From contig NZBG01000034.1 in the NCBI GenBank assembly GCA_002687795.1, positions 10,362 to 74,361 of the forward strand: a stretch of DNA of 64,000 nucleotides. The letters are read 5' to 3'. The translations under genes were made by a program, and so were the position numbers. This stretch comes from Candidatus Woesearchaeota archaeon (GTDB taxonomy: Archaea; Nanobdellota; Nanobdellia; Woesearchaeales; GCA-2687795). Of the stretch, positions 18,251-49,158 are shown one piece after another. The first letter of the stretch is position 1. Each line of letters begins with the position of its first letter. A model generated the notes under the pieces. That model was given only the letters and a program-made list of their open reading frames with translations. It was not told where the DNA came from and did no database searches.

Positions 18251-19666
18251 CTATTGTATTCTAAAAAATAATTTTAAACCACCAAACAGGTTTTTTAAAT
18301 CTCCTAAAGATCTTATTCCGCCTATCTTTCTTAGGATATACTTTGGCCTCAAATAATATTCCCTGTATGCTCTTTTCTGCCAGTAAAGCACTCTCTCAGC
18401 ATCAAGACCAGGCAGGTTCAGGACAGGAACATTGTCCTTGGAAACTAATGTAAAGTCCTTCCAGTCATAACCCTCTCTGAAATATCCTTTTTCCTTTGCT
18501 ATATTATAGAAATCAGTTCCGGGGTATGGGGACGCTACCAGGAAAGCTGTTGTATCAGCGTCGAGCTCCTTGGCCAGCCTGATCGACTGTCTTATTGTCT
18601 CTTCTGTCTCCCCTATATAGCCAAACATGAAATTAACCGCCACATCAATGCCAACCTTTTTCACGAGCTTTACAGCCTCCTTTGCCTGCTCCAGGTTAAC
18701 ATTTTTCCTCATAGCCCTTAGGATATCTTTAGAGCCGCTTTCAATCCCAAACATGATTTTCTTGCATCCCGCGGATTTCATTTCCCTAAGCACATCCTCA
18801 GGGACAAAGTCTGTCCTTGACATGCAGACCCAGGCTATATTCAGCTTCCTTTTCTTGATTTCTCTGCATATCTCGATTGTCCTTTCTTTTAATGTTGTGA
18901 ACAGCTCATCATGAAAATTGAATTCCCTTAGATTATATTTTTTCACGCATGTTTCAATCTCATCCACAAGGTTCTTCGGGCTTCTTGCCCTGTATCTTCT
19001 TTTCCATATCACATTGGGAATGCAGTAAGTGCAGTTGAAGGGGCAGCCTCTTGATGACACTATTGAAGTGCCATGAAATTCGCTTACCTTTTTTGTGGGG
19101 GGTGCTGCATAAAGATGCTGCGGCATCAGGTCCCTCGCCGGAAAAGGCAATATATCAAGGTTATTTATAAATTCCCTTGGCCTTGTTTTTATTATCCTGC
19201 CGTTGTCCATAAAGACTATGCCCGCAACCTCATGCAGGTCCTTCTTTTTATCCAAAGCCTCAACCAGCTCGTAAAAGGTTATCTCTCCCTCGCCAGCCAC
19301 TATGAAGTCTATGGGCTCTATCTTTATTGTTTCTTCCGGAAACACTGAAGGATGAGGCCCACCGACTATTATTATTATATCTTTGGAAATCTTATTCTTG
19401 ATTATATTTGCTATATCTATCACCTGCTGAAACGCAGGAGTGGGTGCGGTCATAGCTATAATATCAGGGTTGATTTTTCTGATTTCCTTTTCCACCATTT
19501 CATATGACAGCTCAAGCGCCTCTGCATCAAGTATCTTACAGGAATGACTCGATTTCTCCCTAAGATAGGCTGCCAGATAGCCAAGATTAATAGGAGCGGA
19601 CTTGCCGCCATGCCCTTCCAGCCCCCCGTATTCAGTAAACGGCGGGTTCAAAAACAATACATTCAT
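18251..19666 (-). CDS. B12-binding radical SAM enzyme (class B)
   Basis: N-terminal Rossmann-like B12 domain (MNVLFLNPP...IIAMTAPTP). The radical SAM cluster motif is SSRGCPFNCTYC. Confidence 0.8.
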   Translation of the reverse strand: MNVLFLNPPFTEYGGLEGHGGKSAPINLGYLAAYLREKSSHSCKILDAEALELSYEMVEKEIRKINPDIIAMTAPTPAFQQVIDIANIIKNKISKDIIIIVGGPHPSVFPEETIKIEPIDFIVAGEGEITFYELVEALDKKKDLHEVAGIVFMDNGRIIKTRPREFINNLDILPFPARDLMPQHLYAAPPTKKVSEFHGTSIVSSRGCPFNCTYCIPNVIWKRRYRARSPKNLVDEIETCVKKYNLREFNFHDELFTTLKERTIEICREIKKRKLNIAWVCMSRTDFVPEDVLREMKSAGCKKIMFGIESGSKDILRAMRKNVNLEQAKEAVKLVKKVGIDVAVNFMFGYIGETEETIRQSIRLAKELDADTTAFLVASPYPGTDFYNIAKEKGYFREGYDWKDFTLVSKDNVPVLNLPGLDAERVLYWQKRAYREYYLRPKYILRKIGGIRSLGDLKNLFGGLKLFFRIQ

Positions 19667-19717
19667 TTAATTTCCCCCTTGTGTTTTTCCTAGTTAAGCA
19701 GCAGGCTTTAGCCTATG

Positions 19718-21151
19718 CTATAGCCTAAACATCCTCAGCCCTGCCTTGACCTTTCTTTTAAGTTCAGGTATGGACCTTACATTCATAAGCTTTTTTATTA
19801 TATAGCCTGGCCTTGTATAAAAATTCTTATAAGCATACATCAGCAACTCCATTAGTTCATCTCTTGTAAGATTCTCTGTCCATAAAGGAGCCCTGAAATC
19901 TTTGGAAGGGTTCTCTGCAAACTCTTTCCATACATCAGTTTTTATAATCCCTTTCTCTAATGCCATCTTGTAAAGCTCTGTTTCAGGAAAGGGCGTGGTC
20001 ACTGAGAAAGATACAAAGTCTGGTTTAAGCTGTTTTGCAAAGTCAATGGTTTTAAGTATCTCTTCCCTCCCTTCACCCGGGGAGCCAATCATAAAGTAGG
20101 CAAGGGTTTCTATCTTTGCCTGCTTTGTCCATCTGAAAGCATCCTTTACCTGTTTTAAAGTAATGCCCTTCCCCAGATTATCCAATACTTTTTGGTCAGA
20201 TGCCTCAACACCATAATGGATTCTTTCACAGCCTGCCTTCCTTAGCTTCAGCAGCATTTCCTTGTCAACCGTGTTGACTCTTGCCCTGATGTCCCAGCCA
20301 ATGTCTAGTTTTCTCCTGCAGATTTCATCACAGATATCAATAACTCTCTGCCTGTCTATTGTAAATGTGTCATCATATATAAGAAATTCTTTAATGCCCA
20401 TGCCAACGCATTCTTCCATTTCATCAACAACATTTTTTGCTGACCTTGCCCTGAACATCTTCCCTAAATGCGGCCTGTCGCAGTAAGTACATTTGTAAGG
20501 GCAGCCTCTGGAGGTTATCATCGTTGTGACCGGGCTCCTTTTGGCCAGAAGCGAGGTATATTTCTGGTGGGGAGTAAGTTTTCTCGCCGGGAAGGGCAGC
20601 ATGTCAAGGTTTTCAATAAAATCCCTTGCTCCTGTGTTTACAGCGTTTCCGTTGCTGTCTTTGAACACAATGCCTTTTATTTCCCTTAGTTTATCCTGGC
20701 TGCTGGTGTTGTCAAGGCTGCCAATGTTATTAAGCAGATCAGTAAACGCATGCTCACCTTCCCCGAGGATAACATAATCCACGCAGGAAAGGTTTATTGT
20801 TTCATATGGAAAGATGTTTGCATGGGGCCCGCCAAGGATAACCTTTATTCCAGGATTTATCTTTTTAACAATCTCAGCGGTCTTAATAACATCCATCAAT
20901 GTAAATGTCATTGCCTGTATGCCCACTATATCAGGCATGAAGTCTTCTATCTTATTTCCTATATCCTTATAATCCATTTCCTCGACCTGGGAATCCAGAA
21001 TCTCAATATGGTGCTTGCTATGCTCTATGGCATAAGAGGATAAGTACAAAAGCCCTAAAGGGGGGTTATAGCCCCTCTCTTCGTCGAGAAACATAGGGCT
21101 GTCTGACATGATCATGTCCTCCATTGGCGGGTTTATTAACAATACTTTCAT
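19718..21151 (-). CDS. B12-binding radical SAM enzyme (class B)
   Basis: MKVLLINPP ... B12 domain; the cluster motif is TSRGCPYKCTYC. Confidence 0.8.
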   Translation of the reverse strand: MKVLLINPPMEDMIMSDSPMFLDEERGYNPPLGLLYLSSYAIEHSKHHIEILDSQVEEMDYKDIGNKIEDFMPDIVGIQAMTFTLMDVIKTAEIVKKINPGIKVILGGPHANIFPYETINLSCVDYVILGEGEHAFTDLLNNIGSLDNTSSQDKLREIKGIVFKDSNGNAVNTGARDFIENLDMLPFPARKLTPHQKYTSLLAKRSPVTTMITSRGCPYKCTYCDRPHLGKMFRARSAKNVVDEMEECVGMGIKEFLIYDDTFTIDRQRVIDICDEICRRKLDIGWDIRARVNTVDKEMLLKLRKAGCERIHYGVEASDQKVLDNLGKGITLKQVKDAFRWTKQAKIETLAYFMIGSPGEGREEILKTIDFAKQLKPDFVSFSVTTPFPETELYKMALEKGIIKTDVWKEFAENPSKDFRAPLWTENLTRDELMELLMYAYKNFYTRPGYIIKKLMNVRSIPELKRKVKAGLRMFRL

Positions 21152-21168
21152 TTTGGTTGTAGTGAATA

Positions 21169-22524
21169 TTAGTGCGTTTTTATTAGTTTTTGTTTTGAGT
21201 ACTCTGCAAGCTCTTTCATGGTAATGACCCAGGCACTTCTGTCGTTTCTTATATACTTAAGAAAATCATGGTAAGCCTTTAGATTTTTCCTGTTTCCTGA
21301 AAGGTGGGACTCAGGATGGGTGTTTATCACAGCAACTCCCCCAACTTTTTTGATAAACTCCAGCTTATTGGCCCATGTCTTTACCATCTTTTCCATGTTA
21401 TAAGACCTGAACAGCAGCCTTGCATCCTGCGGGAGGGTTAAGGGAATCTCAACAAGGCCGTCTATCATATAAGGAAAGACTGTGCAGCAGCCGTTCCTTT
21501 CTGATATCTGTGAATCCTTCTCGGTGTCTACAGAACTTGAATCATAAAGATAGCCATTCTTTTCAAGAAGGCTGTACAGCCTCTCGCTCCTTAACAGGCA
21601 TGGGCTTCTAAAACCTTTTATCTTTAGCTTTTCTTTCAGCCTTGCCATGCTGTTAAACCTCTTTTCGATTTTTTTATCATCAAGAGATATCAGTTTGTTG
21701 TCATGGTTATAGCCATGGAGCAGTATCTCATCACCTTTCTTGATAAGGCTGTCTAACAATCTAAAGTCAATCTTATAGTGATTGGAGACTATGCTCCATG
21801 AAGAAACAAGACTATATTTCCTCTCGATCTTCGAGATAAGAGGAATTCTCTTAAACCCTCCCCCCGTCTCAACATCATGGCTTAAGCAGATAACATACTT
21901 CTTATTTTTCGGCCAGATATCCAGTTTTATTTTTCTGCCTTCTATGGCCTCTATGCATTTCAGCAGCACATGCCTTAATAGTTCCACAGACTTTTCAACA
22001 GGCCAGGAAGGAAAATTCTTTTCTTTCCTGAACATAAACAGGATTTTCTTCATAAGCTTTCTTGAACTGCCGGGCAGAATATGGAAATGGACAGGCAGGT
22101 ATGTATACAGCCTTCTCTTTGGCCTGTAATACCTTTCTTTCATAAGGAATTTTATTGTTTCCACAGGGTCGAAATTGAATATTATCCTGTTCCCTTTCTT
22201 GACTATAAGAGGAATATCCTGGTTCCTTATTCTGGAATGAAGGAGAACCTCGCCTTTGGTTTCATTGCGGTATATCTTTGGAATAAAAACATGAATATGC
22301 TCTTTCTCTTTTACCCATTCAGGCCTTATTTTGGGGTTTAATATCAGCCTTGCTGTTGTATTTCTGTATAGGACTGTATTCTTATTAACAAAAACACCAT
22401 GCCCATTGCCTTCTCCAAGAGGCTTTACTTTCCTGTAATACCTTTCCCAAAAATCTTTGATTGCCATATTACTAAGCCCTGCTTTGAAAAACTCCGCTCT
22501 TTTTCTTTCTTCCCAGGACAACAC
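21169..22524 (-). CDS. Polysaccharide deacetylase (CE4/NodB-like) family protein
   Basis: Motifs LSHDVETGGG, HGYNHD and VINTHPESH. It is paralogous to 62032..63366. Confidence 0.45.
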   Translation of the reverse strand: MLSWEERKRAEFFKAGLSNMAIKDFWERYYRKVKPLGEGNGHGVFVNKNTVLYRNTTARLILNPKIRPEWVKEKEHIHVFIPKIYRNETKGEVLLHSRIRNQDIPLIVKKGNRIIFNFDPVETIKFLMKERYYRPKRRLYTYLPVHFHILPGSSRKLMKKILFMFRKEKNFPSWPVEKSVELLRHVLLKCIEAIEGRKIKLDIWPKNKKYVICLSHDVETGGGFKRIPLISKIERKYSLVSSWSIVSNHYKIDFRLLDSLIKKGDEILLHGYNHDNKLISLDDKKIEKRFNSMARLKEKLKIKGFRSPCLLRSERLYSLLEKNGYLYDSSSVDTEKDSQISERNGCCTVFPYMIDGLVEIPLTLPQDARLLFRSYNMEKMVKTWANKLEFIKKVGGVAVINTHPESHLSGNRKNLKAYHDFLKYIRNDRSAWVITMKELAEYSKQKLIKTH

Positions 22525-23917
22525 TGTTAAAGAAGGCTATACTGTTTCTGATGCCGGCTTTTAACCCTGCCCTTGTCAGATTATACCATATTCTCCTGGG
22601 AGTGAAGTAAAATATCAGGAACCCAAGCCTTTGGTAATTAATGATGTCCTTTCTCTTCAGGTTGTTTACTTCAATCACCGGCGTGCTGTACCTGATGTAC
22701 TTAGAATAATCCTCAGAAATCAGCTTTAAGCCATTCTCTCCTTTCTTTGCCATCTCATAAAGAGGAGTGCCGGGGTAGGGCACGTTAATATAGAGGTAAA
22801 GCTGGTCGCAGTTTTTTAGCCTTCTCATAAACCTTAAGGTTTTCATAACAGTTTTCTTGGTTTCCCCCGGATGGCCTATTATTGCTGATGCTCTTGTTTC
22901 CAGCCCTAAACCTTTTGATATCCTAAATGCGTCTTTTATCTGCTGGAAGCTTACTTCCTTGTTAATCTTTTTTAAGATCTCTTCATCTCCTGTCTCAACA
23001 CCATAAGAGACCCTGACAAGACCGGCTTTTTTCATTAAAGACAGTATATCCTTGTCAACACAGTCAACCCTTGTATGGCATTCCCATGTTATCCTTATGT
23101 TTCTCCTTATTATTTCATTGCAAAGCTCTGCCACCACCTTTTTGTTTGCTGTCATTGTAAGGTCCACAAAGTAAAAATGCTTTATGCCAAGAGCAGTGCA
23201 TTCTTCAATCTCATCGCAAACATTCTCCTTGCTTCTTACCCTGAAGGAAGGGAACAAGGCAGTCTCAGGGCAGTAAAGGCATTTAAAGGGGCAGCCTCTT
23301 GTGCTCATGATTGTTGAGATTCTTACAAGGCCTTTGCCCACCACGCTCATCCTGTACCTGTCCAGGTCAAGGAGCTTTCTGTTAGGAAAAGGCAGCTTAT
23401 CAAGATAATTGTTAATGGACCTTGGCTCAGTCTTAACAATTTCCCCAGCCTTGTTCTTGTAGATTATGCCTCTTATATCCCTTATTTCCTTATTCTGCTC
23501 TATAGCATTAACCAGCTCAGGGAATGTCTCTTCCCCTTCCCCTATAACGCCATAGTCAAAGATAGATGATTTGATAAAAGGGTCTCTGTTAAGCACTGTA
23601 ATATGCGGCCCTCCTATAGCCAGAACTGCATTGGATATGTTTTTTATATGCTGGGCAAGCCTGATTGTCTCATTTATCTGGGGCAGTGTGCATGTAAAGC
23701 CTATGAGCTGCGGGTTCCATGACTTTATAATATTGTCAAGCTCTTCCATTGAATCAATAGCTTCCGAGTCAATAATCTTTACTTCATGGCCATGTTTTTC
23801 AAGAGCTGAAGCAAGGTAACAGAGGCCAAGAGGCGGGTGTAATACAGCAACCTCTGCAGCTGCAACAAAGTTTCCATATACAGATTTCCATGTTGGGTTA
23901 ATAAGCAAAACTTTCAT
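22472..23917 (-). CDS. B12-binding radical SAM enzyme (class B)
   Basis: MKVLLINPTW ... B12 domain; the cluster motif is STRGCPFKCLYC. Confidence 0.8.
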   Translation of the reverse strand: MKVLLINPTWKSVYGNFVAAAEVAVLHPPLGLCYLASALEKHGHEVKIIDSEAIDSMEELDNIIKSWNPQLIGFTCTLPQINETIRLAQHIKNISNAVLAIGGPHITVLNRDPFIKSSIFDYGVIGEGEETFPELVNAIEQNKEIRDIRGIIYKNKAGEIVKTEPRSINNYLDKLPFPNRKLLDLDRYRMSVVGKGLVRISTIMSTRGCPFKCLYCPETALFPSFRVRSKENVCDEIEECTALGIKHFYFVDLTMTANKKVVAELCNEIIRRNIRITWECHTRVDCVDKDILSLMKKAGLVRVSYGVETGDEEILKKINKEVSFQQIKDAFRISKGLGLETRASAIIGHPGETKKTVMKTLRFMRRLKNCDQLYLYINVPYPGTPLYEMAKKGENGLKLISEDYSKYIRYSTPVIEVNNLKRKDIINYQRLGFLIFYFTPRRIWYNLTRAGLKAGIRNSIAFFNSVVLGRKKKSGVFQSRA

Positions 23918-24031
23918 TTTTAGCTGGTTATTTAGTAAAAAACCTCCTCTATAAAAATATTTATTACATAATAGTGACCATTCCAGATTCCTTTATAAAA
24001 CTTATTGTAATTTGTCAGAAAAAGGCTTGAT

Positions 24032-26374
24032 TTAGCCTGTAACCTGTCTTCTAGAACCATAAGCCAATAACAGAATTACCAAAACCAAGGTAACAGAAAA
24101 TATCACAAGCCCTTTCTTAAAAGAGCCAGGCTGGTATTTAAAGAGCAATTCACCTGATTCTCCTTCAAGGTACACTGCAGAGTTCATCCCATTAGCCCTA
24201 TAAATATTCCTTTCTTTATTATCTATCTCTGGCTCCCAGCCCTGGAACATATGGAATTTCTCTGAGAGCACTAACCAGCCAACCTCTTCATCAAGCTCCA
24301 TAATAATTTTATTGGGTGAATAATAGTTTATATCAATTTCTTTAACATCCCTGTAATCGCCTTTAAAAGAGCTTAGCAAAGAATCTATTCTCTCCTGGGA
24401 TATGGAATCTTCACCCTTGACTATGTTTGGCAGGATAATGCCTCCCGAGCTATCATACTGATTTAGTATAAAGAGCGAGCCCTGGTCTATAGACCCCTGG
24501 GTTAAAACAACAGCATTAAATCTTTTAAGGAAATCCAGTTCATAGTTATTCACCTTTTCATAAGCCATAACTATCACAGTGTTAGAAGGGTCAAAATTTT
24601 CATTTGCCATTAATGCATATGCTATCCCATCTACTGCATCCTTGCTGCCCAAAATCAAGATGCTGTGCTCAGCAAGATAAGCCCTTGGCAGATAAAGCTC
24701 ATTATAATACAGGTAAGGGCCATTAATGCCAAAGTCGGTGTTGCGGTCTTCGTATTTATTGCATAATTCAAAGTTATCAAATTTAGTTACAAACCTTAAC
24801 CCTGTAATGTTAACAGGTTCATTTGAGTAAAGGTATTTTGTGTTAAGCATGCCATAGAACTTTGCTGGGAAAGAGTGCGCTATCCCTAGGAAGGTATACA
24901 TCTCAGGAATCCATGTGCCAATCCCGCCGTAAAGCATCTGCAGGTCAAGCAAAGAAATCATGGCAGGGGCAACCCCTGCATGGCTTTTTGTTTTAATATT
25001 GCTTATCCTGAAAACTCCTTCTTCTTTGCTTAGGTTTTGCAGAAGGTAATTATTCTGGAGGCAGGAATTAAAGAACTGGCCTCTCTCAGAGTTTATCCTC
25101 CCGCCTTTTATATACCCTGAAACAAAAAACAGGTCAGCTATCACAATGGCAGCAACTAAGAGATATAGCAGATTAATATGTTTTTTGTTGAATCTTTTGC
25201 CTAACTTATTAAACATAACAGAGCAGCCAATGCCTATTAACACAGAGGTGGCAAAACAGTACAGGTACATGCTCCTGTCCAGGTGATGAAGCCTGTTGAA
25301 CATCGGTACAAATTTCCAGAAAAGATACCAGAAAGGTGTTGGAGCTGCAATAAGCAGGGTGAGGATAATAAGCAGAACAAGGCTCATAACAGTTCTCTTT
25401 TTCCAGAGAGATAAGGAGAACAAAAGCAGGAAGAATCCTGAGAATCCCAATTTAATAATATGGTTGTGCGGGATATTTCTTATGCTCCCTTCTATAGGAA
25501 CCAAGAGCGCCTGGAAAAAGTCAGGAAAGTCTTTGATATTATTTTCCAGGTTGGCGCCGTCAATGCTTCTTTCATAGCTAAAGACATCAACCTGTTTCTT
25601 GCTGCTTGCTTCATTATATTCCAAGAGAGGAAATAACTTAATAGAGAACAGCCCGAGAAACACAAATAATATTACTATGCTTACTAAAGCAACCTTGACT
25701 AATCTTTTAGAGATATTTTTTGTGAAAGTATATACAAAAAAAAACGATAAGAAAAGGAGAACCATAAACAATGAGAAGTCATAACCATTGCCGAGAAACT
25801 GTATAGACAGCAGTATCCCTGTTATAACAGCGTTCTTTAACCATTCTTTTTTTGTGACTGACCTCCATAAAAAGAGAAATATCAGGGGGGCCATGAAATA
25901 TACATGCATTGTTTCCGTGGGGTCGCCCATAGCCCTGACTGCAAAGGGCCCGAACATATAGAAAAGGGCTGAGATAAAAGCAAACCTTGACTTAATATTG
26001 AGGTTGAGCATAAGGATATACATGAACAGCCCGGAAACTAATATGCCAAGAAGCTGTGAGACATTAAATATGCCTATAGGAGAAGATACCAGCAAAGAAA
26101 CCAAAGATGCCATGGAAAAAATAGGAAAGGTTGGATGCGCAAAAAAGGGAAACCCTCCTTGGGAATGGGGATACCATAAAGGGAACTGATGATATTCAAG
26201 AACAGATTTTCTTACAAATGAAAGGGGGCCTACGCTGCCGCTTAAAGGGTCGCCTCTCCTGACATTTGTGAAGCTCAGGTAATCCCAGTATCTTGAACAA
26301 GTGAGAGCTATAAATATTAAGATTATAATTATATGTATCTTGTTCTTTACAAAAAAGTCTTTTATTTTTTTCAT
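24032..26374 (-). CDS. YfhO-like GT-C membrane glycosyltransferase (paralogue B)
   Basis: 780 aa with the same architecture as 15836..18175. The C-terminal WLVLSEKFHMFQGWEP...NSAVYLEGESGELLFKYQPGSFKKG stretch aligns with paralogue A. Confidence 0.5.
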   Translation of the reverse strand: MKKIKDFFVKNKIHIIIILIFIALTCSRYWDYLSFTNVRRGDPLSGSVGPLSFVRKSVLEYHQFPLWYPHSQGGFPFFAHPTFPIFSMASLVSLLVSSPIGIFNVSQLLGILVSGLFMYILMLNLNIKSRFAFISALFYMFGPFAVRAMGDPTETMHVYFMAPLIFLFLWRSVTKKEWLKNAVITGILLSIQFLGNGYDFSLFMVLLFLSFFFVYTFTKNISKRLVKVALVSIVILFVFLGLFSIKLFPLLEYNEASSKKQVDVFSYERSIDGANLENNIKDFPDFFQALLVPIEGSIRNIPHNHIIKLGFSGFFLLLFSLSLWKKRTVMSLVLLIILTLLIAAPTPFWYLFWKFVPMFNRLHHLDRSMYLYCFATSVLIGIGCSVMFNKLGKRFNKKHINLLYLLVAAIVIADLFFVSGYIKGGRINSERGQFFNSCLQNNYLLQNLSKEEGVFRISNIKTKSHAGVAPAMISLLDLQMLYGGIGTWIPEMYTFLGIAHSFPAKFYGMLNTKYLYSNEPVNITGLRFVTKFDNFELCNKYEDRNTDFGINGPYLYYNELYLPRAYLAEHSILILGSKDAVDGIAYALMANENFDPSNTVIVMAYEKVNNYELDFLKRFNAVVLTQGSIDQGSLFILNQYDSSGGIILPNIVKGEDSISQERIDSLLSSFKGDYRDVKEIDINYYSPNKIIMELDEEVGWLVLSEKFHMFQGWEPEIDNKERNIYRANGMNSAVYLEGESGELLFKYQPGSFKKGLVIFSVTLVLVILLLAYGSRRQVTG

Positions 26375-26411
26375 TCGCAGAGAGTATTTTCCTTAACTGT
26401 GAGAATAGTAC

Positions 26412-26433
26412 CTACGCAACTGGCGTTGCGTAG
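26412..26433. promoter_or_regulatory. GC-rich perfect hairpin/palindrome (9-bp arms CTACGCAAC/GTTGCGTAG, loop TGGC) in a divergent intergenic region
   Basis: The palindrome is directly visible. It sits in an unusually GC-rich patch of the 237-bp divergent promoter region, and a partial copy TTGCGTAG recurs at about 26508. Confidence 0.4.
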
Positions 26434-26611
26434 CTACATCCTCCCCATTATCGCAAATGAAGTATCGAGGGCCCACCCCTAACAATGGACATTTAAACAT
26501 GCTACTTGCGTAGATACTGGAGTATTAGATAATCATATAAATATTTGTTGATGAATTGACTGTCATACCACAAAAACATTAATAAATAACTGCTCAATCT
26601 ATTCACTAAGA

Positions 26612-27343: not shown

Positions 27344-27350
27344 TACCTTC

Positions 27351-28304: not shown

Positions 28305-28306
28305 TC

Positions 28307-41817: not shown

Positions 41818-42975
41818 CTATTTAAGTAATCCTATTTTCTTCTTCAGAATATACCTGACTATATCATACCAGTTTTTCCCGCAGTCAGACCTGCATGTCC
41901 CGCAATAGCTCTTTATGTCTTTTCTTATAGCATCTGCCTTCTTGCTGAACCATATCCGGCTTAAATCTGTCTCAAGCGCATTGCCCAGCTTAGCGGATTT
42001 GTTGTTCATGCACATAAACACATCCCCATTATTCTCTATGAAGATTGTTGAGTATCCAAACACGCACCCCCTGCTTTTGCTTCTTCTTTTTCCCCAATAC
42101 ATATTGATTATATCGTTGGTGTACAGCTCTTCATATATCTGCTCCCCGGAAATCCTCTTTAAGAAAGCTGTTATCTTTTTTATCTGGCTGTCTGTAAATG
42201 TCAGCTCTTTATTCTTTGTGTTGCTGAAGAACGAGCTTGGGTTGATGATCAGATGGTTAAAGGCATATTCTAACTTGTTTGACTTGATGAACTCATATAT
42301 TTTATCAAGCTGGTGCACATTTGCAGGCTGGATAACACAGCCTATGGAAACACCAAGCTTACTGTTGCTTTTCTGGATTTTCTTAAGCTCTTCAAGCATA
42401 AGCATGGCATTATCGAACACAAAAGGCAGCCCCCTGACCTTATTATGCACTCCCTCCAAACCATCCAGAGACAGCCTGACATTCAGCTTTTCAAAATCCT
42501 GAGGGAGAATCTCTAAAATCCCTTTTATTTTTTCCAGGGCAGGCTTATAAGCAACACAATTAGTGGAGAAGCCTATTGTCTTGAGCTTTTTACATTTTTT
42601 TAGGGCTATCTTAACAATGCCCACCAGATCCTTCCTTAAAGTCGGCTCACCCCCGTAAAGGTGCAATGACTCTATTGAGTCTAAAAGCGGGTCAGAAAAT
42701 ATCTTTTCAATATCTTTGATGCCTAAATCATCCTCTGCTTTATCTTTCCAGACATTGCACATCAAACACTTTCCGTTGCACTTTTTTGTGACTGTAAATA
42801 TGCAGGCGTTTGGCTTTGAAGCTATTCCTCTCCCTGCCATGAAGCCTTTATAGATGCTTCTGGTTACCCTATTGACCCTCTTGTAAAAAACAGGTGTTTT
42901 AAGCATTATAGGTATCAGGATTCCTTGACTATTATTTAAGTTTTGTTGAAGTTTGTTTCTTAAGATATCATACAC
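41818..42975 (-). CDS. Radical SAM enzyme with a SPASM-like C-terminal Cys cluster
   Basis: FTVTKKCNGKCLMCNVW, a C-terminal SYCGTCRSDCGKNWYD, and an internal GCVFG...CMNN. Confidence 0.75.
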   Translation of the reverse strand: MYDILRNKLQQNLNNSQGILIPIMLKTPVFYKRVNRVTRSIYKGFMAGRGIASKPNACIFTVTKKCNGKCLMCNVWKDKAEDDLGIKDIEKIFSDPLLDSIESLHLYGGEPTLRKDLVGIVKIALKKCKKLKTIGFSTNCVAYKPALEKIKGILEILPQDFEKLNVRLSLDGLEGVHNKVRGLPFVFDNAMLMLEELKKIQKSNSKLGVSIGCVIQPANVHQLDKIYEFIKSNKLEYAFNHLIINPSSFFSNTKNKELTFTDSQIKKITAFLKRISGEQIYEELYTNDIINMYWGKRRSKSRGCVFGYSTIFIENNGDVFMCMNNKSAKLGNALETDLSRIWFSKKADAIRKDIKSYCGTCRSDCGKNWYDIVRYILKKKIGLLK

Positions 42976-43224: not shown

Positions 43225-44217
43225 ATGGAAAATAAGAAAGTATTAGTTACAGGCGCACCGGGATGGCTAGGCACAAGAGTAGTAGAAGTTCTATGTTCAA
43301 AAGGCTATGATGTAAGATGCTTTGCACTAAAAGGCCTTGATTTGTCCTCTTTAAAGAAGCTTAACGTGGAGACGGTTGAGGGGGATATAACCAAAAAGGA
43401 AACCATAACTGAGGCTGTTAAAGATATTCATACAGTGGTTCACTGCACTGGGCTGATCCACCCTAAGAAAATAAAAGAGCTCTATGATATCAATACCCAG
43501 GGCACTAAAAATATTCTGGAGAAATCTGCGGAAGCTGGTGTTAAAAAGTTTGTTTATATCAGCTCTAATTCTGCCCAGGGATGCAACATCAGGAGAAATA
43601 TGCTTATGAGGGAAGACCAGAAGGAAAAGCCTGAAAAGAGCTATGGCAAAAGCAAATACCTTGCTGAGAGGGCTGTAAGAAGTTTCCAGAATTCTGGGAA
43701 ACTCAACACTGTTATCCTAAGGCCATGCTGGTTTTATGGCCCCGGCCAGCCTGAGAGGCAGACAAGGCTGATGAAGATGGTAAAGGCAGGAAACCCTTTG
43801 ATCTTCGGCAATGGCAGAAACATAAGGAGCATGAGCTATATAGATAATATTGTTCAGGCAATCATCCTTTCTATGGAAAAGGATATTGCAAACGGAAAAA
43901 TATATTGGATAGCTGATAAAAGGCCTTATGAAACAATTGAGATATACAGGACAATAGCTGATATACTGGGAGTCAGGTTAAAGCCGCGTTATGTGCCAAA
44001 GATAGTTTCCCAGGTCCTGGAGATAGGAGATGATATCCTGCAGGCGCTTGGGTTTTATATCCAGGAGGTGCATGTAGGCGGAGAGCTTGTGAAGAACATT
44101 GCATGCGACATATCAAAAGCTGAAAAAGAGCTGGGGTATGATCCTAAGGTTGACCTGAAGGAAGGCATGAGAAGGTCCATTGAATGGGCAGAAAAGCAGG
44201 GTTATCTAAATGACTGA
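43225..44217 (+). CDS. NAD-dependent epimerase/dehydratase/reductase (extended SDR)
   Basis: VLVTGAPGWLGTRVVEVL and YGKSKYLAE (YxxxK). Confidence 0.8.
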   Translation: MENKKVLVTGAPGWLGTRVVEVLCSKGYDVRCFALKGLDLSSLKKLNVETVEGDITKKETITEAVKDIHTVVHCTGLIHPKKIKELYDINTQGTKNILEKSAEAGVKKFVYISSNSAQGCNIRRNMLMREDQKEKPEKSYGKSKYLAERAVRSFQNSGKLNTVILRPCWFYGPGQPERQTRLMKMVKAGNPLIFGNGRNIRSMSYIDNIVQAIILSMEKDIANGKIYWIADKRPYETIEIYRTIADILGVRLKPRYVPKIVSQVLEIGDDILQALGFYIQEVHVGGELVKNIACDISKAEKELGYDPKVDLKEGMRRSIEWAEKQGYLND

Positions 44218-45247
44218 GACATGCCTGGTAACAGGGGGCTCAGGCTTCTTCGGGACCCATCTTGTGAGGAAGCTTCTTGAAAAGAAAAGAAAGGTCAGGG
44301 TTTTTGATATAGCTGAGCCTGAGGAAGGTGTCAGGGGTAAAGTAGAGTTCTTTAAGGGAGATATAAGAGACTTTGATTCTGTTAACAAGACATGCAAAAA
44401 CATTGATGTTGTTTACCATACTGTTGCTGTTGTGCCCATCTCCAAAGCAGGCAAAAAGTTTGATGAGATTAATGCCGGCGGAACAAGAAATATTCTCGAG
44501 GCTGCCTTGAGGAACAAGGTAAAGTCTTTTGTGCATATATCAAGCACCGCTATCTATAAGGTTCCAAAGAAAGGAGATGTAATAACAGAAGACTATCCTA
44601 TAATGCCTGTAGGGGATTATGGCAGGGCAAAGTACCATGCTGAAAAGATATGTTTTGAATACATGAAAAAAGGTCTTAACATAACCATCCTAAGGCCAAG
44701 AACAATTATAGGAACAGGCAGGCTCGGCATATTCTCTATCCTGTTCGACTGGATAAGAAGAGGCAAAAATATCTATATTCTTGGCAATGGCAATAACCTT
44801 TTTTCCTATGTCAGCGCCTCAGATCTGGCTGAAGCCTCTATCCTGGCAAGCAAGAAGGGCTTTGGCTTATTCTTAAATATAGGCGCTGAAGAATACGGAA
44901 CTTTCAAGGGGGACCTTAAGAAACTGGTAAGGTATGCAAAAAGCAAGTCAAGGTTTGTAACCATAAACGCTGAGCTGACCAGGCTCATTTTGCAGGTGCT
45001 TGATAAGATTGGCTTATCACCTTTGACAGAATGGCATTATAAAACGGTTGACAAGGAATATGTGTTCGATGTGTCAAAAGCAAAGAAGGTTCTTGGATGG
45101 AAGCCAAAAGACAGCAACGAGAGAATGTTTAAAGATACCTATGACTGGTATCTTAAAAACTATAAACAGCTTGATAAGCGCATAGGAACAACCCATAGGT
45201 TTTCCGCAAAACAGGGAATATTAAAGCTGTTAAAGCTCTTTTCATAA
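44210..45247 (+). CDS. NAD-dependent epimerase/dehydratase/reductase (extended SDR)
   Basis: CLVTGGSGFFGTHLVRKLL and YGRAKYHAE. It has an 8-bp overlap with the upstream SDR gene. Confidence 0.8.
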   Translation: MTETCLVTGGSGFFGTHLVRKLLEKKRKVRVFDIAEPEEGVRGKVEFFKGDIRDFDSVNKTCKNIDVVYHTVAVVPISKAGKKFDEINAGGTRNILEAALRNKVKSFVHISSTAIYKVPKKGDVITEDYPIMPVGDYGRAKYHAEKICFEYMKKGLNITILRPRTIIGTGRLGIFSILFDWIRRGKNIYILGNGNNLFSYVSASDLAEASILASKKGFGLFLNIGAEEYGTFKGDLKKLVRYAKSKSRFVTINAELTRLILQVLDKIGLSPLTEWHYKTVDKEYVFDVSKAKKVLGWKPKDSNERMFKDTYDWYLKNYKQLDKRIGTTHRFSAKQGILKLLKLFS

Positions 45248-45262
45248 CCATTTTTCATAATT

Positions 45263-45907
45263 ATGATAAAGATAGACATACATGTGCATACAAAGTATTC
45301 CAGGGACAGCTTGCTTGAGCTTAAAACAATAAGCAAGCTCTGCTCAAGAAAAGGGATTATCCCTGTTATATCTGACCATAATTCTCTTAAAGGCGCGCTT
45401 CAGTACAGAAAGCTGTTCAAAGATTGCATAGTTGGGGAAGAGATCAACACCTCCCAGGGAGAGATAACAGCTCTTTTCTTAAACAATGAAATACCTTCCG
45501 GGCTGGATATTGATGCCACAATAGACAGGATAAGGGAGCAGGATGCTGTTTTATATGTTCCCCATCCCTTTGATTCATTAAGGAGGGAAACAATAAAAAC
45601 ATCAGCCCTTTCCAGGATTAAGCCTGATATCATAGAGGTCTTTAACTCCAGAACTGTTTTATCTGCCTCAAATAAAATGGCTAAAGAGTTTGCCATTAAG
45701 AACAAGTATCTGAAAGGCGTTGGCTCTGATGCGCACACCGGCAGAGAGATAGGGAATGCCTTTGCTGCTGTGGAGGATTTTAACCTTGATTCTAAGAAGG
45801 ATTTTCTCAGGAATCTCAAAGATGCAAAGTTTTACTGCAGGAAGTCAGGCCTTGCAGTGCATGCTGTCACCTTTTTTGAGAAAAGGCTTAAGCTCGTTAG
45901 AAAATGA
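45263..45907 (+). CDS. PHP-domain metal-dependent phosphoesterase
   Basis: MIKIDIHVHTKYSRDS ... VPHPFD ... GSDAHT, the His/Asp-rich PHP motifs. Confidence 0.55.
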   Translation: MIKIDIHVHTKYSRDSLLELKTISKLCSRKGIIPVISDHNSLKGALQYRKLFKDCIVGEEINTSQGEITALFLNNEIPSGLDIDATIDRIREQDAVLYVPHPFDSLRRETIKTSALSRIKPDIIEVFNSRTVLSASNKMAKEFAIKNKYLKGVGSDAHTGREIGNAFAAVEDFNLDSKKDFLRNLKDAKFYCRKSGLAVHAVTFFEKRLKLVRK

Positions 45908-45917
45908 ACCTTCTAAG

Positions 45918-46790
45918 TCAGTAATACACTATCAAAAAGCTGGATGCAAGCCATAGGACTATTCCTATCATCATCCTTATGTCAAAGAACACTTTCTCAG
46001 GATGCCTTGTAACTTCCGAGCCTTTCTCGATAAGGTACAAATACCTGAATATCACATAAAGCGCGAATGGAAGAGTAAGCACAAGGTACTGGTTTATGCT
46101 TAAGAAGCTGTACAGTGAATAAGACATGATCAGCAGGCTTGTGGAAATAACCATCAATGATTTTGTGATCGGCTTTGTATAAAAGCTGAAGACCTCTTTA
46201 TGCGAGACTGCTTTCTCCCCAAGGTAAACCAGGTCAGCCTCTCTCTTCCCTATAGAGATAAACAGGGAAAGAAAAAACACGCAGATGATAAGCCAGGGGG
46301 ACAGCCTTAGCCAGGGCATGCCATCAACCATTATAACAAACACCCCTGAAGCAGCCCTTACCACAAAGTTGACTGCTATTATTATAATATCAACAAAAGG
46401 CTCTTTCTTGAGAAAGAAAGAATAAAGCTGTGTAACCAGGAACAGGAACAATATAAACAGCAGGAAATATCCTGATAAGGATATCCCTATGCCAAGGGAT
46501 ACAATAAACAATGTTATTGCCAGTATTATCGCCTGCCAAACCTTTATCTTTCCTGAAGCCAGGGGCCTTAACCTCTTTTCAGGATGGTTGATATCCTTCT
46601 TTATATCCACTATATCATTGATTATATAATTCACAGACGAAATAAAACAAAGTGCCAGAAAGCCATAGAAAGTCTTTTCCAGTCCAACAAGGTTTAGAAG
46701 CTCACTGGCGAATATTATAGATAAAAATATTACCAGGTTCTTATACCACTGCCTTACTCTCATCAAATAGATTATATCTCTTAATTTCAT
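45918..46790 (-). CDS. UbiA-family polyprenyl-phosphate (phospho)glycosyl/prenyl transferase, DPPR-synthase-like
   Basis: 8-9 TM helices; YIINDIVDIKKDINHPEKRLRPLASGKI is the NDxxDxxxD motif; N-terminus RVRQWYKNLVIF. Confidence 0.65.
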   Translation of the reverse strand: MKLRDIIYLMRVRQWYKNLVIFLSIIFASELLNLVGLEKTFYGFLALCFISSVNYIINDIVDIKKDINHPEKRLRPLASGKIKVWQAIILAITLFIVSLGIGISLSGYFLLFILFLFLVTQLYSFFLKKEPFVDIIIIAVNFVVRAASGVFVIMVDGMPWLRLSPWLIICVFFLSLFISIGKREADLVYLGEKAVSHKEVFSFYTKPITKSLMVISTSLLIMSYSLYSFLSINQYLVLTLPFALYVIFRYLYLIEKGSEVTRHPEKVFFDIRMMIGIVLWLASSFLIVYY

Positions 46791-46804
46791 TCCAGAACAT
46801 AGAT

Positions 46805-48070
46805 TTACTTCTCCATTAAAAAACCTTTCGATGAGCTGGCTTCTGAACTGAATGCTGATTTACGCACAAACACGCCTTTTAGCAGCAGCTTAGACAGCTG
46901 CCTTGCATACTTCAGCCTCAGGAAGCTGAACAGGTTCCACTTCTTAACAGCAGGAGCAGCGCCGATCTTTTCTATATCTTTCATGGAAACCGTAAACGCA
47001 GCTGTCTTAGCCATCACCATAAGCAAAGAGAAGACCGCCAGGAGAAAAATAACAGGCCTTAGGTATACAAGATTCTTTATTGACAACGCCAAAGGTATGG
47101 CCAGGTATGGCAGCATTGATGCAATATACCTATGGTCTCTTGCATCTCCTCCCCACCAGGTTTTATGCTTTGAGATAAGAAGGAACAAAGGAAGGCAGAG
47201 AAGAGCAAACATAACAAGAAACTCCAAAGGAAGGTAATAAAAGCCAATAACCCCGAATATCAGCACAGGGCTGATCACAAAGATGCCGCCGTTCTTTATA
47301 GAGAAAAGCAGCCCGGTTATTCCTGAAAAGATTGGCGTGACAAATGTTGTGAAAGGCGAGTTTGACCATTTAAAGAATGCGCTGTGTTTGTAAGATGTTG
47401 TGAAAGGAGAGCCAAAACATATCTTGTTATAGAGGAAAAGAGGTGCAATGCCTATAACAAAGCCAATAACCAGGTAAGGTGTTGACCAGAAATCTCCCAA
47501 AATCAGTTTAGAGAGAACGATTCCTCCCAGATACATAACATTGGTGTATTCAACCATTGCAGCAAGCCCTATTATTATTCCTGCAAATACAGGACTTAGC
47601 CCTATCAACAGGCAATAGACAGCAGCCAGTATAAGGAAGGTTGACAAAGAATGTATAAAGAACACAACACTGTATCTCCAGTTCAGTGTGCTGAAGGCGA
47701 AAATAAGCGCTGTTACAAAAGATATTGAAGGGCTGTTAACCAGCATCTCCGCTATAAGATACACCAACACACAAGAAAATATCCCGGAAAGCCATGAAAC
47801 AAGAGTTACCGGAAGCCTAAGATAATGGAACACAACCGCTGCAAAAGCCAAACCAGGCGGCCTGTCTGTATAATAATTATCTCCTATTTTAGCATAGTCT
47901 ATTTCCTTTGTATACTTTGTGAAATCATTGATAGCTAATTTTTTCTTTTCAACAATCGCCCTCACCAAAGCAAACAGGCTTCCGTCATTAGAAGTAATTA
48001 TGCCCTTCATCGACAGGCCGTAAATAATCCCGACTATAACTATAAGCATAATCAAGAACAATTTTAACAC
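46805..48070 (-). CDS. Polytopic membrane protein; GT-C-like (polyprenyl-P-sugar dependent) glycosyltransferase candidate
   Basis: 421 aa, about 11 TM helices, with a first-loop acidic motif (SNDGSLFALV ... DYAKIGDNYYTDRPPG). Confidence 0.4.
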   Translation of the reverse strand: MLKLFLIMLIVIVGIIYGLSMKGIITSNDGSLFALVRAIVEKKKLAINDFTKYTKEIDYAKIGDNYYTDRPPGLAFAAVVFHYLRLPVTLVSWLSGIFSCVLVYLIAEMLVNSPSISFVTALIFAFSTLNWRYSVVFFIHSLSTFLILAAVYCLLIGLSPVFAGIIIGLAAMVEYTNVMYLGGIVLSKLILGDFWSTPYLVIGFVIGIAPLFLYNKICFGSPFTTSYKHSAFFKWSNSPFTTFVTPIFSGITGLLFSIKNGGIFVISPVLIFGVIGFYYLPLEFLVMFALLCLPLFLLISKHKTWWGGDARDHRYIASMLPYLAIPLALSIKNLVYLRPVIFLLAVFSLLMVMAKTAAFTVSMKDIEKIGAAPAVKKWNLFSFLRLKYARQLSKLLLKGVFVRKSAFSSEASSSKGFLMEK

Positions 48071-49158
48071 TTCCTATTCTCGCATTTTTGATATACCGGG
48101 CAATCTTCACAGACTTTAGGGGTCTGCCCTGATCTCAGCATTTTTCTTAATGCTGTGAACTTTTTCCCGTACCATATCTCTCTAAATGGTGTTTCAAAAA
48201 CATTGCCCATGCTGGTCTTTTTCTGGAACTCTCTCCTGTTTGCCTCATTCTCAGCGCAGCATGGTATAACATGCCCGGTAACAAATATATAAGGCATTGC
48301 CCATGCAATACAGTTGTTCATTGTTACCTTATTGCAGTCAGCCTTTGTGTTAAGGTTCCATAGGATTGTCTGCTTGCATTCTTCGCCAACTTTATCTACC
48401 CTTTTTATCTGCTCCTTGGTTATCTTTGTATTGATATCCTTAATCTCTTCAAATTCATGAAGGTTGTTTGTAAACTGTATATGCTCATTTTTTGGGCAGA
48501 TTCTGGCGATTAGCCTCACAAAATCCTCCATCTCATGCTGGTTGATCTTATTCACAATATAATGGAATGCAATCAACGGCAGCTTTGTGCCTCTCTTCTT
48601 TTTCTCTCTGGTGAAATTTTTTATATTCTCAACCACTGTTTCGTAATTAGAGCCAACCCTGATTTTCTCATAGGTTTCTTTTGTTGTCCCGTCCATTGAA
48701 ACATAAACCTTATCAATTTTTGCATCAAAGATTTTTGACAGGATTTCAGGAGTCATTTTACAGAAAGAATCGAATATCTCTGTATACTGCCCCTTCTTTT
48801 TTGAATACTCAAGCATCTTTGGAAAATCTTTGTTGAGAAGGTTGTTGCCTATGCCGCTAAAGCCTACCCAGGTTAGCGAAGGTATCTGGTCTATTATCTT
48901 CTTGTACTCGTCAAGGCTCATCAGCTTTGGCTTTTCATCCCAGTATGTATGCTCGCATTCTATACAACGAAGATCGCAATAAGTGCTGATTTCAATCTCA
49001 ATATAATAAGGCATTGGAACTTTTTTATAGAACATATCAACAATTCTCTTATTATGCCTCATATACAAAGGCCAGTATCTTAAATGCCTGTATGTAAACC
49101 CCAGGCCTCTCTCCTTCAGGAGATAGTACACGTTCCTTATCCTTCTCAAAAACATCAT
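48064..49158 (-). CDS. Radical SAM enzyme with a SPASM-like C-terminal Cys cluster
   Basis: IEISTYCDLRCIECEHTYW and a C-terminal CCAENEANRREF...CEDCPVYQKCENRKC. Confidence 0.75.
   Translation of the reverse strand: MMFLRRIRNVYYLLKERGLGFTYRHLRYWPLYMRHNKRIVDMFYKKVPMPYYIEIEISTYCDLRCIECEHTYWDEKPKLMSLDEYKKIIDQIPSLTWVGFSGIGNNLLNKDFPKMLEYSKKKGQYTEIFDSFCKMTPEILSKIFDAKIDKVYVSMDGTTKETYEKIRVGSNYETVVENIKNFTREKKKRGTKLPLIAFHYIVNKINQHEMEDFVRLIARICPKNEHIQFTNNLHEFEEIKDINTKITKEQIKRVDKVGEECKQTILWNLNTKADCNKVTMNNCIAWAMPYIFVTGHVIPCCAENEANRREFQKKTSMGNVFETPFREIWYGKKFTALRKMLRSGQTPKVCEDCPVYQKCENRKC

Follow-up and report, generated by a model that had tools for sequence, protein, structure and literature searches.

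The window analysed here, a stretch of 64,000 nucleotides of a Candidatus Woesearchaeota archaeon, holds a locus in which seven of approximately 29 genes encode radical S-adenosylmethionine (SAM) enzymes, a density with a binomial P of about 1e-8 to 1e-6 when 1-2% of all genes are assumed (our own figure) to be of this kind. The preferred interpretation, to which we give slightly less than even confidence for its two parts together, is that the locus serves this DPANN archaeon as an island for cell-envelope glycosylation, and that its soluble, cytoplasmic radical SAM enzymes would tailor lipid-phosphate-linked amino sugars before these are flipped across the membrane and transferred by GT-C glycosyltransferases to a surface glycoprotein. 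Four of the enzymes are of the cobalamin (B12)-binding type (B12a to B12d) and three are of other radical SAM types (rSAM1, SPASM2 and SPASM3). The seven CxxxCxxC motifs quoted in a first-pass annotation of the DNA all lie in long minus-strand open reading frames (ORFs), as follows (aa, amino acids).

18251-19666, minus strand: B12a, 471 aa, B12-type motif SSRGCPFNCTYC (PF02310 and PF04055)
19718-21151, minus strand: B12b, 477 aa, conserved partner of B12a, B12-type motif TSRGCPYKCTYC (PF02310 and PF04055)
22472-23917, minus strand: B12c, 481 aa, B12-type motif STRGCPFKCLYC (PF02310 and PF04055)
32841-33917, minus strand: rSAM1, motif TAKCNSRCRMC, with a cysteine-rich tail (PF04055, 65.8 bits)
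35003-36493, minus strand: B12d, B12-type motif CSRGCPYQCSFC (PF02310 and PF04055); the true start is probably an ATG 12 codons into the ORF
41818-42975, minus strand: SPASM2, motif TKKCNGKCLMC (PF13186, 41.5 bits; PF04055, 39.6 bits)
48064-49158, minus strand: SPASM3, motif STYCDLRCIEC (PF04055, 56.7 bits; PF13186, 47.8 bits)

The assignment of four B12-binding radical SAM enzymes is borne out by the domain scores, which are 73-85 bits for PF02310 (cut-off 32.1) and 89-106 bits for PF04055 (cut-off 29.5); the B12-binding domain is N-terminal in all four, and the NCBI name of 19718-21151 is 'B12-binding domain-containing radical SAM protein'. The accompanying assignment of three SPASM/twitch enzymes holds for SPASM2 and SPASM3, in which both PF04055 and the C-terminal SPASM domain PF13186 (cut-off 21.5 bits), with its auxiliary-cluster cysteines, are above cut-off, and is no more than plausible for rSAM1, which matches PF04055 and gives no PF13186 match. 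The genes had also been described as co-operonic, often with a 4-bp overlap. Two of the seven do overlap a neighbour (32841-33917 and 31228-32844 by 4 bp, 48064-49158 and 46805-48070 by 7 bp), while the remaining five do not; the B12 genes lie on one strand with gaps of 17-114 bp. No membrane segments are predicted in any of the seven proteins, and they are therefore expected to be cytoplasmic.

The embedding of these genes in an envelope-glycan locus is real, and the association is kept across the loci of other lineages, so that it is no accident of a single contig. A search with B12a gives 3863 relatives at E <= 1e-10, among which the nearest that bear a name (50-64% identity) come from Patescibacteria, Omnitrophota and Woesearchaeota; orthologues with 43-62% identity occur in the candidate phyla radiation (CPR), Omnitrophota, Scalindua and Woesearchaeota. 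The B12b-B12a pair is adjacent or close in five loci from three bacterial phyla (L002, L040, L085, L005 and L006), in which the B12b orthologues have 46-57% identity to the window protein. Portnoybacteria show B12b/B12a identities of 52/61%, Omnitrophota 57/62%, L085 51/57%, Ca. Scalindua 46/45% and another Patescibacterium 51/43%. The two orthogroups thus travel together across lineages, which suggests transfer between domains. In contrast, the window paralogues share only 34-37% identity with each other. The reading of the trio at 18251-23917 as paralogues for iterative modification is not upheld by this comparison with the orthologues (51-62%) that are kept as an adjacent pair in bacteria, although the domain calls and the glycan locus of the same interpretation are; the B12 paralogues are distinct, old orthogroups, pointing to different successive reactions and not to iteration by recent duplicates.

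The neighbours that recur around these enzymes are similar from lineage to lineage. They comprise three to five B12 enzymes with an LPG_synthase_TM gene (often abutting B12a), small GT2 glycosyltransferases and Polysacc_deac_1/DUF2334 genes, and further DegT, GFO, hexapeptide transferase, short-chain dehydrogenase/reductase (SDR), GtrA, Bac_transf and PMT_2 genes. Of 80 sampled loci from GTDB species representatives, 34 have a GT2 gene no more than 3 kb away from a B12 enzyme and 41 have some glycan gene at that distance; 32 have at least two B12 enzymes, and two have seven or eight. The Portnoybacteria locus has five B12 enzymes with LPG_synthase_TM, GT2, Polysacc_deac_1, GT4 and methyltransferases; in another Woesearchaeota locus (L004) a B12 enzyme abuts LPG_synthase_TM, with GT2 and PMT_2 present; and on one further contig three B12 enzymes are followed, with a 4-bp overlap, by LPG_synthase_TM, together with DegT, GT2, SDR, Bac_transf and GtrA. 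The order in L085 (Hexapep, GFO, B12b, B12a, B12, CE4, SDR, 244-aa GT2) is almost syntenic with the window, and the Ca. Scalindua locus (L005) has the order GT2 - B12 enzyme - nitroreductase, as in the window. In an uncultured Methanosarcinales (L012) the order is B12 enzyme, YfhO-like, GtrA, SDR, LPG_synthase_TM/methyltransferase and ArnC-like GT2; this mirrors window positions 13958-19666 and indicates that the module also occurs in archaea related to methanogens or anaerobic methanotrophs. Cultured carriers within glycan clusters are Lawsonia intracellularis (plasmid 1, L086) and Solidesulfovibrio carbinolicus (pDCAR1, L087). Their clusters are heptose-type, with a SIS isomerase, sugar kinase, HAD hydrolase and GT2, to which Lawsonia adds five class I methyltransferases, and the Lawsonia and Desulfovibrionaceae clusters are possible experimental models.

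The proteins of the window are identical to NCBI MAG08644-MAG08694 (locus tags CMO89_04xxx) of a Candidatus Woesearchaeota metagenome-assembled genome (MAG) from TARA station 037 (mesopelagic, 0.1-0.22 um fraction). An FtsY gene lies on the same scaffold, 2 kb upstream of AglB, and its named relatives are solely from Woesearchaeota and Nanoarchaeia; the contig is thus archaeal, and a bacterial contig mis-binned into the MAG, which was considered, is ruled out on this ground. The island exceeds the window, since a fifth B12-radical SAM gene (474 aa, motif CPYNCSFC; L095 103-1527, TARA scaffold_949) is situated approximately 8.5-10 kb past its right end. The fifth enzyme has 32-34% identity to the other four, and its gene has LPG_synthase_TM, DegT and GFO as neighbours, along with acetyltransferases, a carbamoyltransferase and a PMT GT-C. 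The other genes of the window to which the argument refers are listed here.

507-3968, plus strand: AglB/STT3 oligosaccharyltransferase, 1153 aa (PF02516 STT3, 158 bits)
4004-5131, plus strand: GT9 gene of the 'LPS (lipopolysaccharide) heptosyltransferase' type, directly after AglB (138 bits)
5132-6289, minus strand: 385-aa protein next to AglB, with a signal peptide, a C-terminal membrane anchor and a basic tail
6331-9402, minus strand: secreted 1023-aa protein with a signal-peptide-like N-terminus, sequon-rich, candidate glycan acceptor
13958-15457, minus strand: LPG_synthase_TM (flippase-like) fused to a class I SAM methyltransferase (PF03706, 139 bits; Methyltransf_11, 60 bits; TIGR00374 'flippase-like domain', 92.7 bits, above the cut-off of 43.2)
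15450-15839, minus strand: GtrA-like small membrane protein, about four membrane segments (PF04138, 26.7 bits, barely above cut-off)
15836-18175, minus strand: YfhO-like GT-C membrane glycosyltransferase, about eight membrane segments (PF09586, 31.7 bits, cut-off 28.5)
21169-22524, minus strand: CE4-like (polysaccharide deacetylase-like) protein (PDB 3rxz, polysaccharide deacetylase, E 2e-9)
24032-26374, minus strand: second YfhO-like membrane protein, 780 aa, about ten membrane segments, no Pfam match of its own; 34% identity over 770 aa to 15836-18175
26612-27343, plus strand: small, divergent GT2 of the polyprenyl-phosphate sugar synthase type, 243 aa (PF00535, 83 bits; best NCBIfam match PpgS, polyprenyl-phospho-GalNAc synthase, 74.5 bits, below cut-off)
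27351-31015, minus strand: SDR epimerase/dehydratase, DegT aminotransferase, hexapeptide acetyltransferase and GFO/IDH/MocA oxidoreductase (Pfam)
31228-32844, minus strand: soluble 538-aa protein, 4-bp overlap with 32841-33917, no membrane segments
33985-34968, minus strand: GT2 glycosyltransferase with about three C-terminal membrane segments (PF00535, 118 bits)
36459-37103, minus strand: nitroreductase-family flavoprotein (PF00881, 105 bits; BluB-like, 75 bits, below cut-off)
37115-38026, minus strand: ArnC/PgfS-like GT2 of the polyprenyl-phosphate glycosyltransferase type, two C-terminal membrane segments (PF00535, 122 bits; ArnC, 190 bits, and PgfS, 171 bits, each below cut-off)
38135-39640, plus strand: Wzx/MATE-type flippase, about 14 membrane segments (MatE, Polysacc_synt, Polysacc_synt_3)
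43225-45907, plus strand: two extended SDRs and a PHP phosphoesterase (Pfam); the closest profile of both SDRs is HpnA, below cut-off
45918-46790, minus strand: UbiA-family protein, decaprenyl-phosphate phosphoribosyltransferase-like (PF01040, 89.6 bits; NF008977, 181 bits, cut-off 234; the NCBI name agrees)
46805-48070, minus strand: seven-transmembrane protein, putative GT-C-like transferase (weak match to the LA_3751/2 putative glycosyltransferase family)
49199-50062, minus strand: CDP-alcohol phosphatidyltransferase-family membrane protein (PF01066, 41.4 bits), weakly like archaetidylinositol-phosphate synthase
58896-60470, minus strand: PMT_2 GT-C glycosyltransferase (PF13231, 49.8 bits)
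61319-63366, minus strand: class I methyltransferase (Methyltransf_11, 70.9 bits) and a second CE4-like protein
63422-64000, plus strand: start of a second LPG_synthase_TM gene, which runs past the window end (Pfam on the TARA scaffold)

The island contains at least three repeats of one gene theme. Module 1 (13958-31015) extends from the LPG_synthase_TM-methyltransferase gene to the nucleotide-sugar genes and includes B12a, B12b, the CE4-like gene and B12c; its DegT, hexapeptide and GFO genes are presumably of the WbpE, WbpD and WbpB types for 3-acetamido sugars. Module 2 (31228-38026) consists of the ArnC-like GT2, the nitroreductase, B12d, a GT2, rSAM1 and the 538-aa soluble protein. The right-end module has the PMT_2 GT-C, a methyltransferase, the second CE4-like protein, the second LPG_synthase_TM and, outside the window, the fifth B12 gene. 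The second CE4-like protein (62032-63366) scores above cut-off with both DUF2334 (28.8 bits) and Polysacc_deac_1 (28.2 bits); it shares 34% identity and the motifs SHDVE and H(G/A)YNHD with its paralogue at 21169-22524. At the left end, 2.4 kb from AglB, the 6331-9402 protein has 76 N-X-S/T sequons, compared with 24.5 +/- 4.2 in 2000 composition shuffles (maximum 41). Its composition makes it a candidate for a heavily N-glycosylated surface or S-layer protein, and it is probably the acceptor of the glycan. The 5132-6289 protein is likely to be another surface protein beside AglB. The GT9 family, represented by the gene that follows AglB, is best known from bacterial LPS core synthesis.

In the proposed pathway of module 1, the SDR, GFO, DegT and acetyltransferase enzymes would provide an acetamido or diamino sugar linked to uridine diphosphate, which the small GT2 (26612-27343) would place on dolichyl or polyprenyl phosphate. 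The CE4-like protein (21169-22524) would take off the N-acyl group, and B12a, B12b and B12c would then carry out separate radical reactions, each on an unactivated carbon of the lipid-linked sugar. The LPG_synthase_TM and GtrA-type proteins would flip the product across the membrane, where the YfhO-like GT-C enzymes would attach it to an acceptor on the surface; the glycan carried by the sequon-rich protein next to AglB is the probable one. The same logic would apply to the series GT2 - nitroreductase - B12d - GT2 - rSAM1 and to CE4 - methyltransferase - LPG_synthase_TM - fifth B12 enzyme. In module 2 the nitroreductase, which lies between a GT2 and a B12-radical SAM gene both here and in the Ca. 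Scalindua locus (near position 7 kb of L005), may be a dedicated reductase or electron donor to the radical enzymes. We infer which substrates are used, in what order the steps run and what chemistry takes place from what is observed, namely the domains, the synteny, the conservation of the module and the archaeal contig.

Lipid-linked tailoring is proposed because the gene set fits known lipid-phosphate-sugar systems, of which HpnI/J/K/L, the set that turns bacteriohopanetetrol glucosamine into the cyclitol ether, is the closest. Both have the same four components, namely a GT2 and a deacetylase together with a class B radical SAM enzyme and an LPG_synthase_TM-family membrane protein, and on Burkholderiaceae replicons (L088, L091) they are arranged as hpnJ-hpnI-LPG-synthase-domain gene and as hpnI-hpnJ-hpnK. 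The Hpn system differs in that the deacetylase of the window is CE4-like whereas HpnK is, we assume, YdjC-like, in that three to five paralogous radical enzymes and GT-C transferases are present here, and in that shc and hpnH are absent here; Pfam and NCBIfam scans found no hopanoid genes (shc, hpnH, hpnG) in the 64-kb window or its flanks. HpnJ is thought to act after deacetylation, on a lipid-linked amino sugar (PMC13459092). HpnL is a member of the LPG-synthase/AglD family (bioRxiv 10.1101/2025.07.29.667474), and the window LPG_synthase_TM protein is related to it at the family level only, with no BLAST-level similarity.

Other systems resemble the module in part. MoeK5, GenK and GenD1/GntE are, like the window enzymes, B12-type radical SAM enzymes, and those methylases C-methylate sugars; they differ in belonging to actinomycete antibiotic pathways and not to primary envelope glycans, and the comparison is by description only. 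MoeK5 acts on a lipid-linked saccharide (PMC9204698). AprD4, the radical SAM 1,2-diol dehydratase that works with AprD3 in apramycin synthesis, offers the best solved fold for B12a (454 versus 471 aa). Its substrate is an amino sugar (a structure has an aminoglycoside substrate bound), and SDR partners are present in the window locus, although the window enzymes differ from it in retaining a strong PF02310 match with conserved residues. In the ArnC/D/E-F/T, PpgS/Rv3632/Rv3779 and AglD/R/S systems, a GT2 loads polyprenyl phosphate, a deacylase trims, a flippase exports and a GT-C enzyme transfers. The corresponding types are all present in the locus: ArnC- and PpgS-like GT2s, the CE4-like proteins, GtrA and LPG_synthase_TM as small flippase-type proteins, and YfhO, PMT_2 and STT3 as GT-C enzymes. 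We know of no radical SAM enzyme in any of these three systems.

The relationships of the B12 enzymes are less easily read than those of their neighbours. Sugar C-methyltransferases, Grs enzymes and peptide maturases had been named as possible nearest characterised homologues. By profile these are instead HpnJ and BchE, and by fold AprD4; methylase profiles score lower, and profiles for peptides that are ribosomally synthesized and then post-translationally modified (RiPPs) lie far under their cut-offs. Three of the four have HpnJ (TIGR03471) as their best NCBIfam profile, with 260.7, 232.6, 184.9 and 213.3 bits for the four enzymes against a cut-off of 577.6, and their identity to two HpnJ proteins is 26-30%. 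BchE (TIGR02026) gives 209-242 bits (cut-off 481; identity 28-30%), the AprD4 family (NF033070) 120-132 bits (cut-off 500) and known methylase profiles 95-160 bits; the solved methylases TokK, TsrM and CysS match at only 40-45 bits. No bch or puh photosynthesis genes are found in the context of the B12 enzymes. In the AlphaFold2 model of B12a (pLDDT 93.5) the top Foldseek match is AprD4, with a TM-score of 0.75-0.80 over the full length, followed by full-length alignments with MgmA, TsrM, OxsB, CysS and TokK. Within the B12 domain D47, G102 and G103 are invariant and T76, P77 and H105 nearly so; as far as the sequences tell, the enzymes probably use cobalamin.

A neighbour-joining tree of 139 sequences, made without bootstrap support, places HpnJ and BchE within the same radiation as the window enzymes but not as their sisters, so that clustering with BchE, named in the first-pass annotation as a sign against its own reading, gives no clean verdict. 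The nearest neighbours of B12c in the tree are from Methanosarcinales (L015) and Omnitrophota (L055). In a sequence network, HpnJ co-clusters with the methylases Fom3 and MoeK5 (PMC9204698), and likeness to HpnJ therefore settles no chemistry, methylation included.

A number of points weigh against the proposed module. None of the seven radical SAM proteins meets any NCBIfam curated cut-off, and their function is consequently read from their neighbours. The tree is star-like. AprD4, the best fold match, is treated in a review as unrelated to true B12 users (PMC12931638), so that cobalamin use is a prediction only. SPASM2, which was earlier described as co-operonic with a glycosyltransferase, is not clearly so; its operon membership is doubtful because the flanking ORFs run on the opposite strand, and it is left with no clear operon partner. 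For the deacetylase at 21169-22524, the DUF2334 and WbmS-like matches are narrowly under the Pfam cut-offs. HpnL itself is uncharacterised (bioRxiv 10.1101/2025.07.29.667474), and proteins that consist of LPG_synthase_TM only are without demonstrated activity. The 80 loci counted above are a sample, not the closest relatives, and the counts stand without a genome-wide background for comparison. The choice of a lipid-linked over a nucleotide-linked substrate is argued from the adjacency of GT2 and flippase-like genes. The function of the module as a whole is a prediction from its genes.

The main alternative is lipid modification, in which enzymes like Grs, Gmm, Tes or HpnP/R would methylate, cyclise or cross-link the isoprenoid chains of membrane lipids or dolichol, with the envelope island as no more than the place where their genes are kept. 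GrsA/B and Gmm are indeed archaeal B12-type radical SAM enzymes (PMC13459092), and the locus has UbiA, CDP-alcohol phosphatidyltransferase and LPG_synthase_TM genes; the UbiA protein, however, is of the phosphoribosyltransferase type. rSAM1 is weakly similar to GDGT-MAS/Tes (7tol, E 4e-6), but its score with the Tes profile NF045702 (61.4 bits) is far under the cut-off of 450, as is that of SPASM2 (37.1 bits). The best 25 NCBIfam matches per protein include no Grs profile. Relatives in Thermoproteota/Thaumarchaeota form a B12 and rSAM1 pair without glycan genes. Against this, indirectly, B12a and B12b orthologues (43-62% identity) occur in CPR, Omnitrophota and anammox bacteria, the membrane lipids of which are unlike those of archaea, and the genes that constantly accompany them encode GT2s, sugar aminotransferases, acetyltransferases and deacetylases, not lipid synthesis enzymes. 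We consider lipid modification improbable. Maturation of peptides or proteins, by RiPP-type C-methylases or SPASM cross-linkers acting on the surface protein or a small peptide nearby, is very improbable. The island does encode a large secreted protein, SuiB, CteB and SkfB are among the fold neighbours of SPASM3, and ApyD (135-186 bits) and RiPP C-methyltransferase profiles are listed by NCBIfam, yet they fall far short of the cut-offs of 750 and 282. By Pfam there are no precursor-peptide, protease, exporter, YcaO or lanthipeptide genes, short ORFs having been searched less than exhaustively; the N-terminus of SPASM3 lacks strands like those of the RiPP recognition element (RRE), and its neighbours elsewhere are glycan genes.

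A closer variant of the preferred model has the radical steps taking place on nucleoside diphosphate sugars, the product going to cytoplasmic glycosyltransferases for the N-glycan of AglB; this is unlikely but has a genuine claim. DesII acts on TDP-sugars, and GenK and AprD4 on free pseudo-oligosaccharides; DesII, BtrN, BlsE and AprD4 are among the nearest folds. The B12 genes adjoin SDR, DegT, GFO and acetyltransferase genes, SPASM3 homologues have SDR and NTP_transferase genes as neighbours, and the window encodes AglB as well as a Wzx flippase. However, in six of the seven loci examined B12a orthologues abut LPG_synthase_TM or an ArnC-like GT2, and the deacetylase with the GT2/GtrA/GT-C triad fits the lipid-linked logic of ArnC/D/T and HpnI/K/J. 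The substrates are likely to be lipid-phosphate-linked sugars as much as nucleotide sugars.

Within the preferred model of sugar tailoring, C-methylation of the MoeK5/GenK kind is ranked as the likeliest reaction of the B12 enzymes, although tentatively. Most characterised class B radical SAM enzymes are methylases, MoeK5 provides a precedent, and many class I methyltransferases are found in homologous clusters. Chemistry of some other kind has a modest chance, an HpnJ-like ring contraction or other C-C rearrangement a somewhat smaller one, and an AprD4-like dehydration or deoxygenation would be the least expected.

Relatives of rSAM1, counted jointly with the other non-B12 radical SAM types, lie beside B12 enzymes in 16 of the 80 loci. 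The C-terminal part of rSAM1 has cysteines at C272, C290, C328, C330 and C334, which make a twitch or partial SPASM domain plausible; the score with N_Twi_rSAM is 63 bits (cut-off 170). The product of the overlapping gene 31228-32844 was earlier taken for a GT-C enzyme, an assignment that we drop since no membrane segments are predicted. It has no Pfam or NCBIfam match, and relatives lie beside B12 enzymes in L004, L010 and L017 among the loci listed. SPASM2 has no sequence relative in the PDB.

SPASM3 is situated in a block (43225-50977) of UbiA, PHP phosphoesterases, two SDRs, the seven-transmembrane protein and the CDP-alcohol phosphatidyltransferase that resembles a polyprenyl-phospho-pentose pathway. 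The mycobacterial decaprenyl-phospho-arabinose pathway (UbiA Rv3806c, a phosphatase, DprE1/E2 and GT-C arabinosyltransferases) is alike in its UbiA, to which the window protein is similar as a putative decaprenylphosphoryl-phosphoribose (DPPR) synthase, and in the PHP phosphoesterases, the two SDRs and the seven-transmembrane transferase; it differs in that the window locus is without a DprE1-like flavoenzyme and has a SPASM radical SAM gene in the operon instead. We propose that SPASM3 belongs to this DPPR-like branch, and speculate that it might be an anaerobic oxidase replacing DprE1 in a ribose-to-arabinose-type epimerisation. Its C-terminal cluster domain resembles BtrN (E 1e-9), and the AlphaFold2 model (pLDDT 91.8) begins with three helices and no RRE-like beta-strands. 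The fold neighbours are peptide maturases (SuiB, CteB, SkfB) and sugar or cyclitol enzymes (DesII, BtrN, BlsE), at TM-scores of 0.43-0.65, with the maturases scoring as well as the sugar enzymes. In Syntrophoarchaeum, Parcubacteria and one further contig, SPASM3 homologues (40-59% identity) have GT4, SDR and NTP_transferase genes as well as B12 enzymes around them, and a 59% homologue (L092) is likewise accompanied by an SDR pair. In a Parcubacteria locus (L094, 6974-7987), a B12-radical SAM gene is separated from the SPASM3 homologue by DUF4430 and DUF6580 genes, which might relate to cobalamin handling.

Taken more broadly, the module could represent a widespread, undescribed pathway, shared horizontally by ultra-small symbionts (DPANN, CPR), Omnitrophota, anammox bacteria and other anaerobes, in which two to eight B12-dependent radical SAM enzymes rebuild lipid-linked amino sugars before display, by C-methylation, carbasugar ring contraction or deoxygenation; this wider proposal is doubtful. 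Most of what is known of class B radical SAM enzymes comes from the making of antibiotics, cofactors and lipids. In this archaeon and in many uncultured lineages they look like central components of cell-surface construction, and what would be new is the move of sugar-tailoring class B chemistry into primary envelope glycan assembly. In the literature that we searched, which is not complete, we found no description of B12-radical SAM enzymes in polyprenyl-phosphate glycan modules, be it of Omnitrophota, anammox bacteria, DPANN or CPR. In the anammox bacterium Kuenenia the S-layer glycan has up to five methyl groups on six sugars, called O-methyl by mass difference alone (PMC5088730); these are a lead, not evidence.

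If the proposal is true, archaeal glycoproteins would carry sugar types not known in them so far, and the surface coat of symbionts would rely on scavenged cobalamin. To our knowledge, organisms of the DPANN and CPR type are thought unable to make cobalamin, and confirmation would tie the coat with which they contact their hosts to a cobalamin supply from the community. Prokaryotic glycan biosynthesis would then be known to include radical C-H chemistry, and a function would be assigned to a very large branch of B12-radical SAM enzymes (the 3863 relatives) that is so far uncharacterised. Concrete experimental entry points are the B12b-B12a pair and, among cultured organisms, the clusters of Desulfovibrionaceae and Lawsonia.

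Three further features of the window may be mentioned. Rfam and tRNA scans of the window gave no match, cobalamin riboswitch included. Between PHP and phosphodiesterase/sulfatase-family genes lie two adjacent genes for proteins of about 368 aa (51599-52708 and 52701-53804, both minus strand), which have no Pfam or NCBIfam match; their termini are alike (…FYES… and …VVVGYFDAY…), which suggests tandem paralogues. The segment 56000-58200 has a GC content of 0.315, compared with approximately 0.40, and encodes a nucleotidyltransferase (57543-58160) with a partner of 124 aa, so that the segment resembles an insertion of the toxin-antitoxin type within the island.

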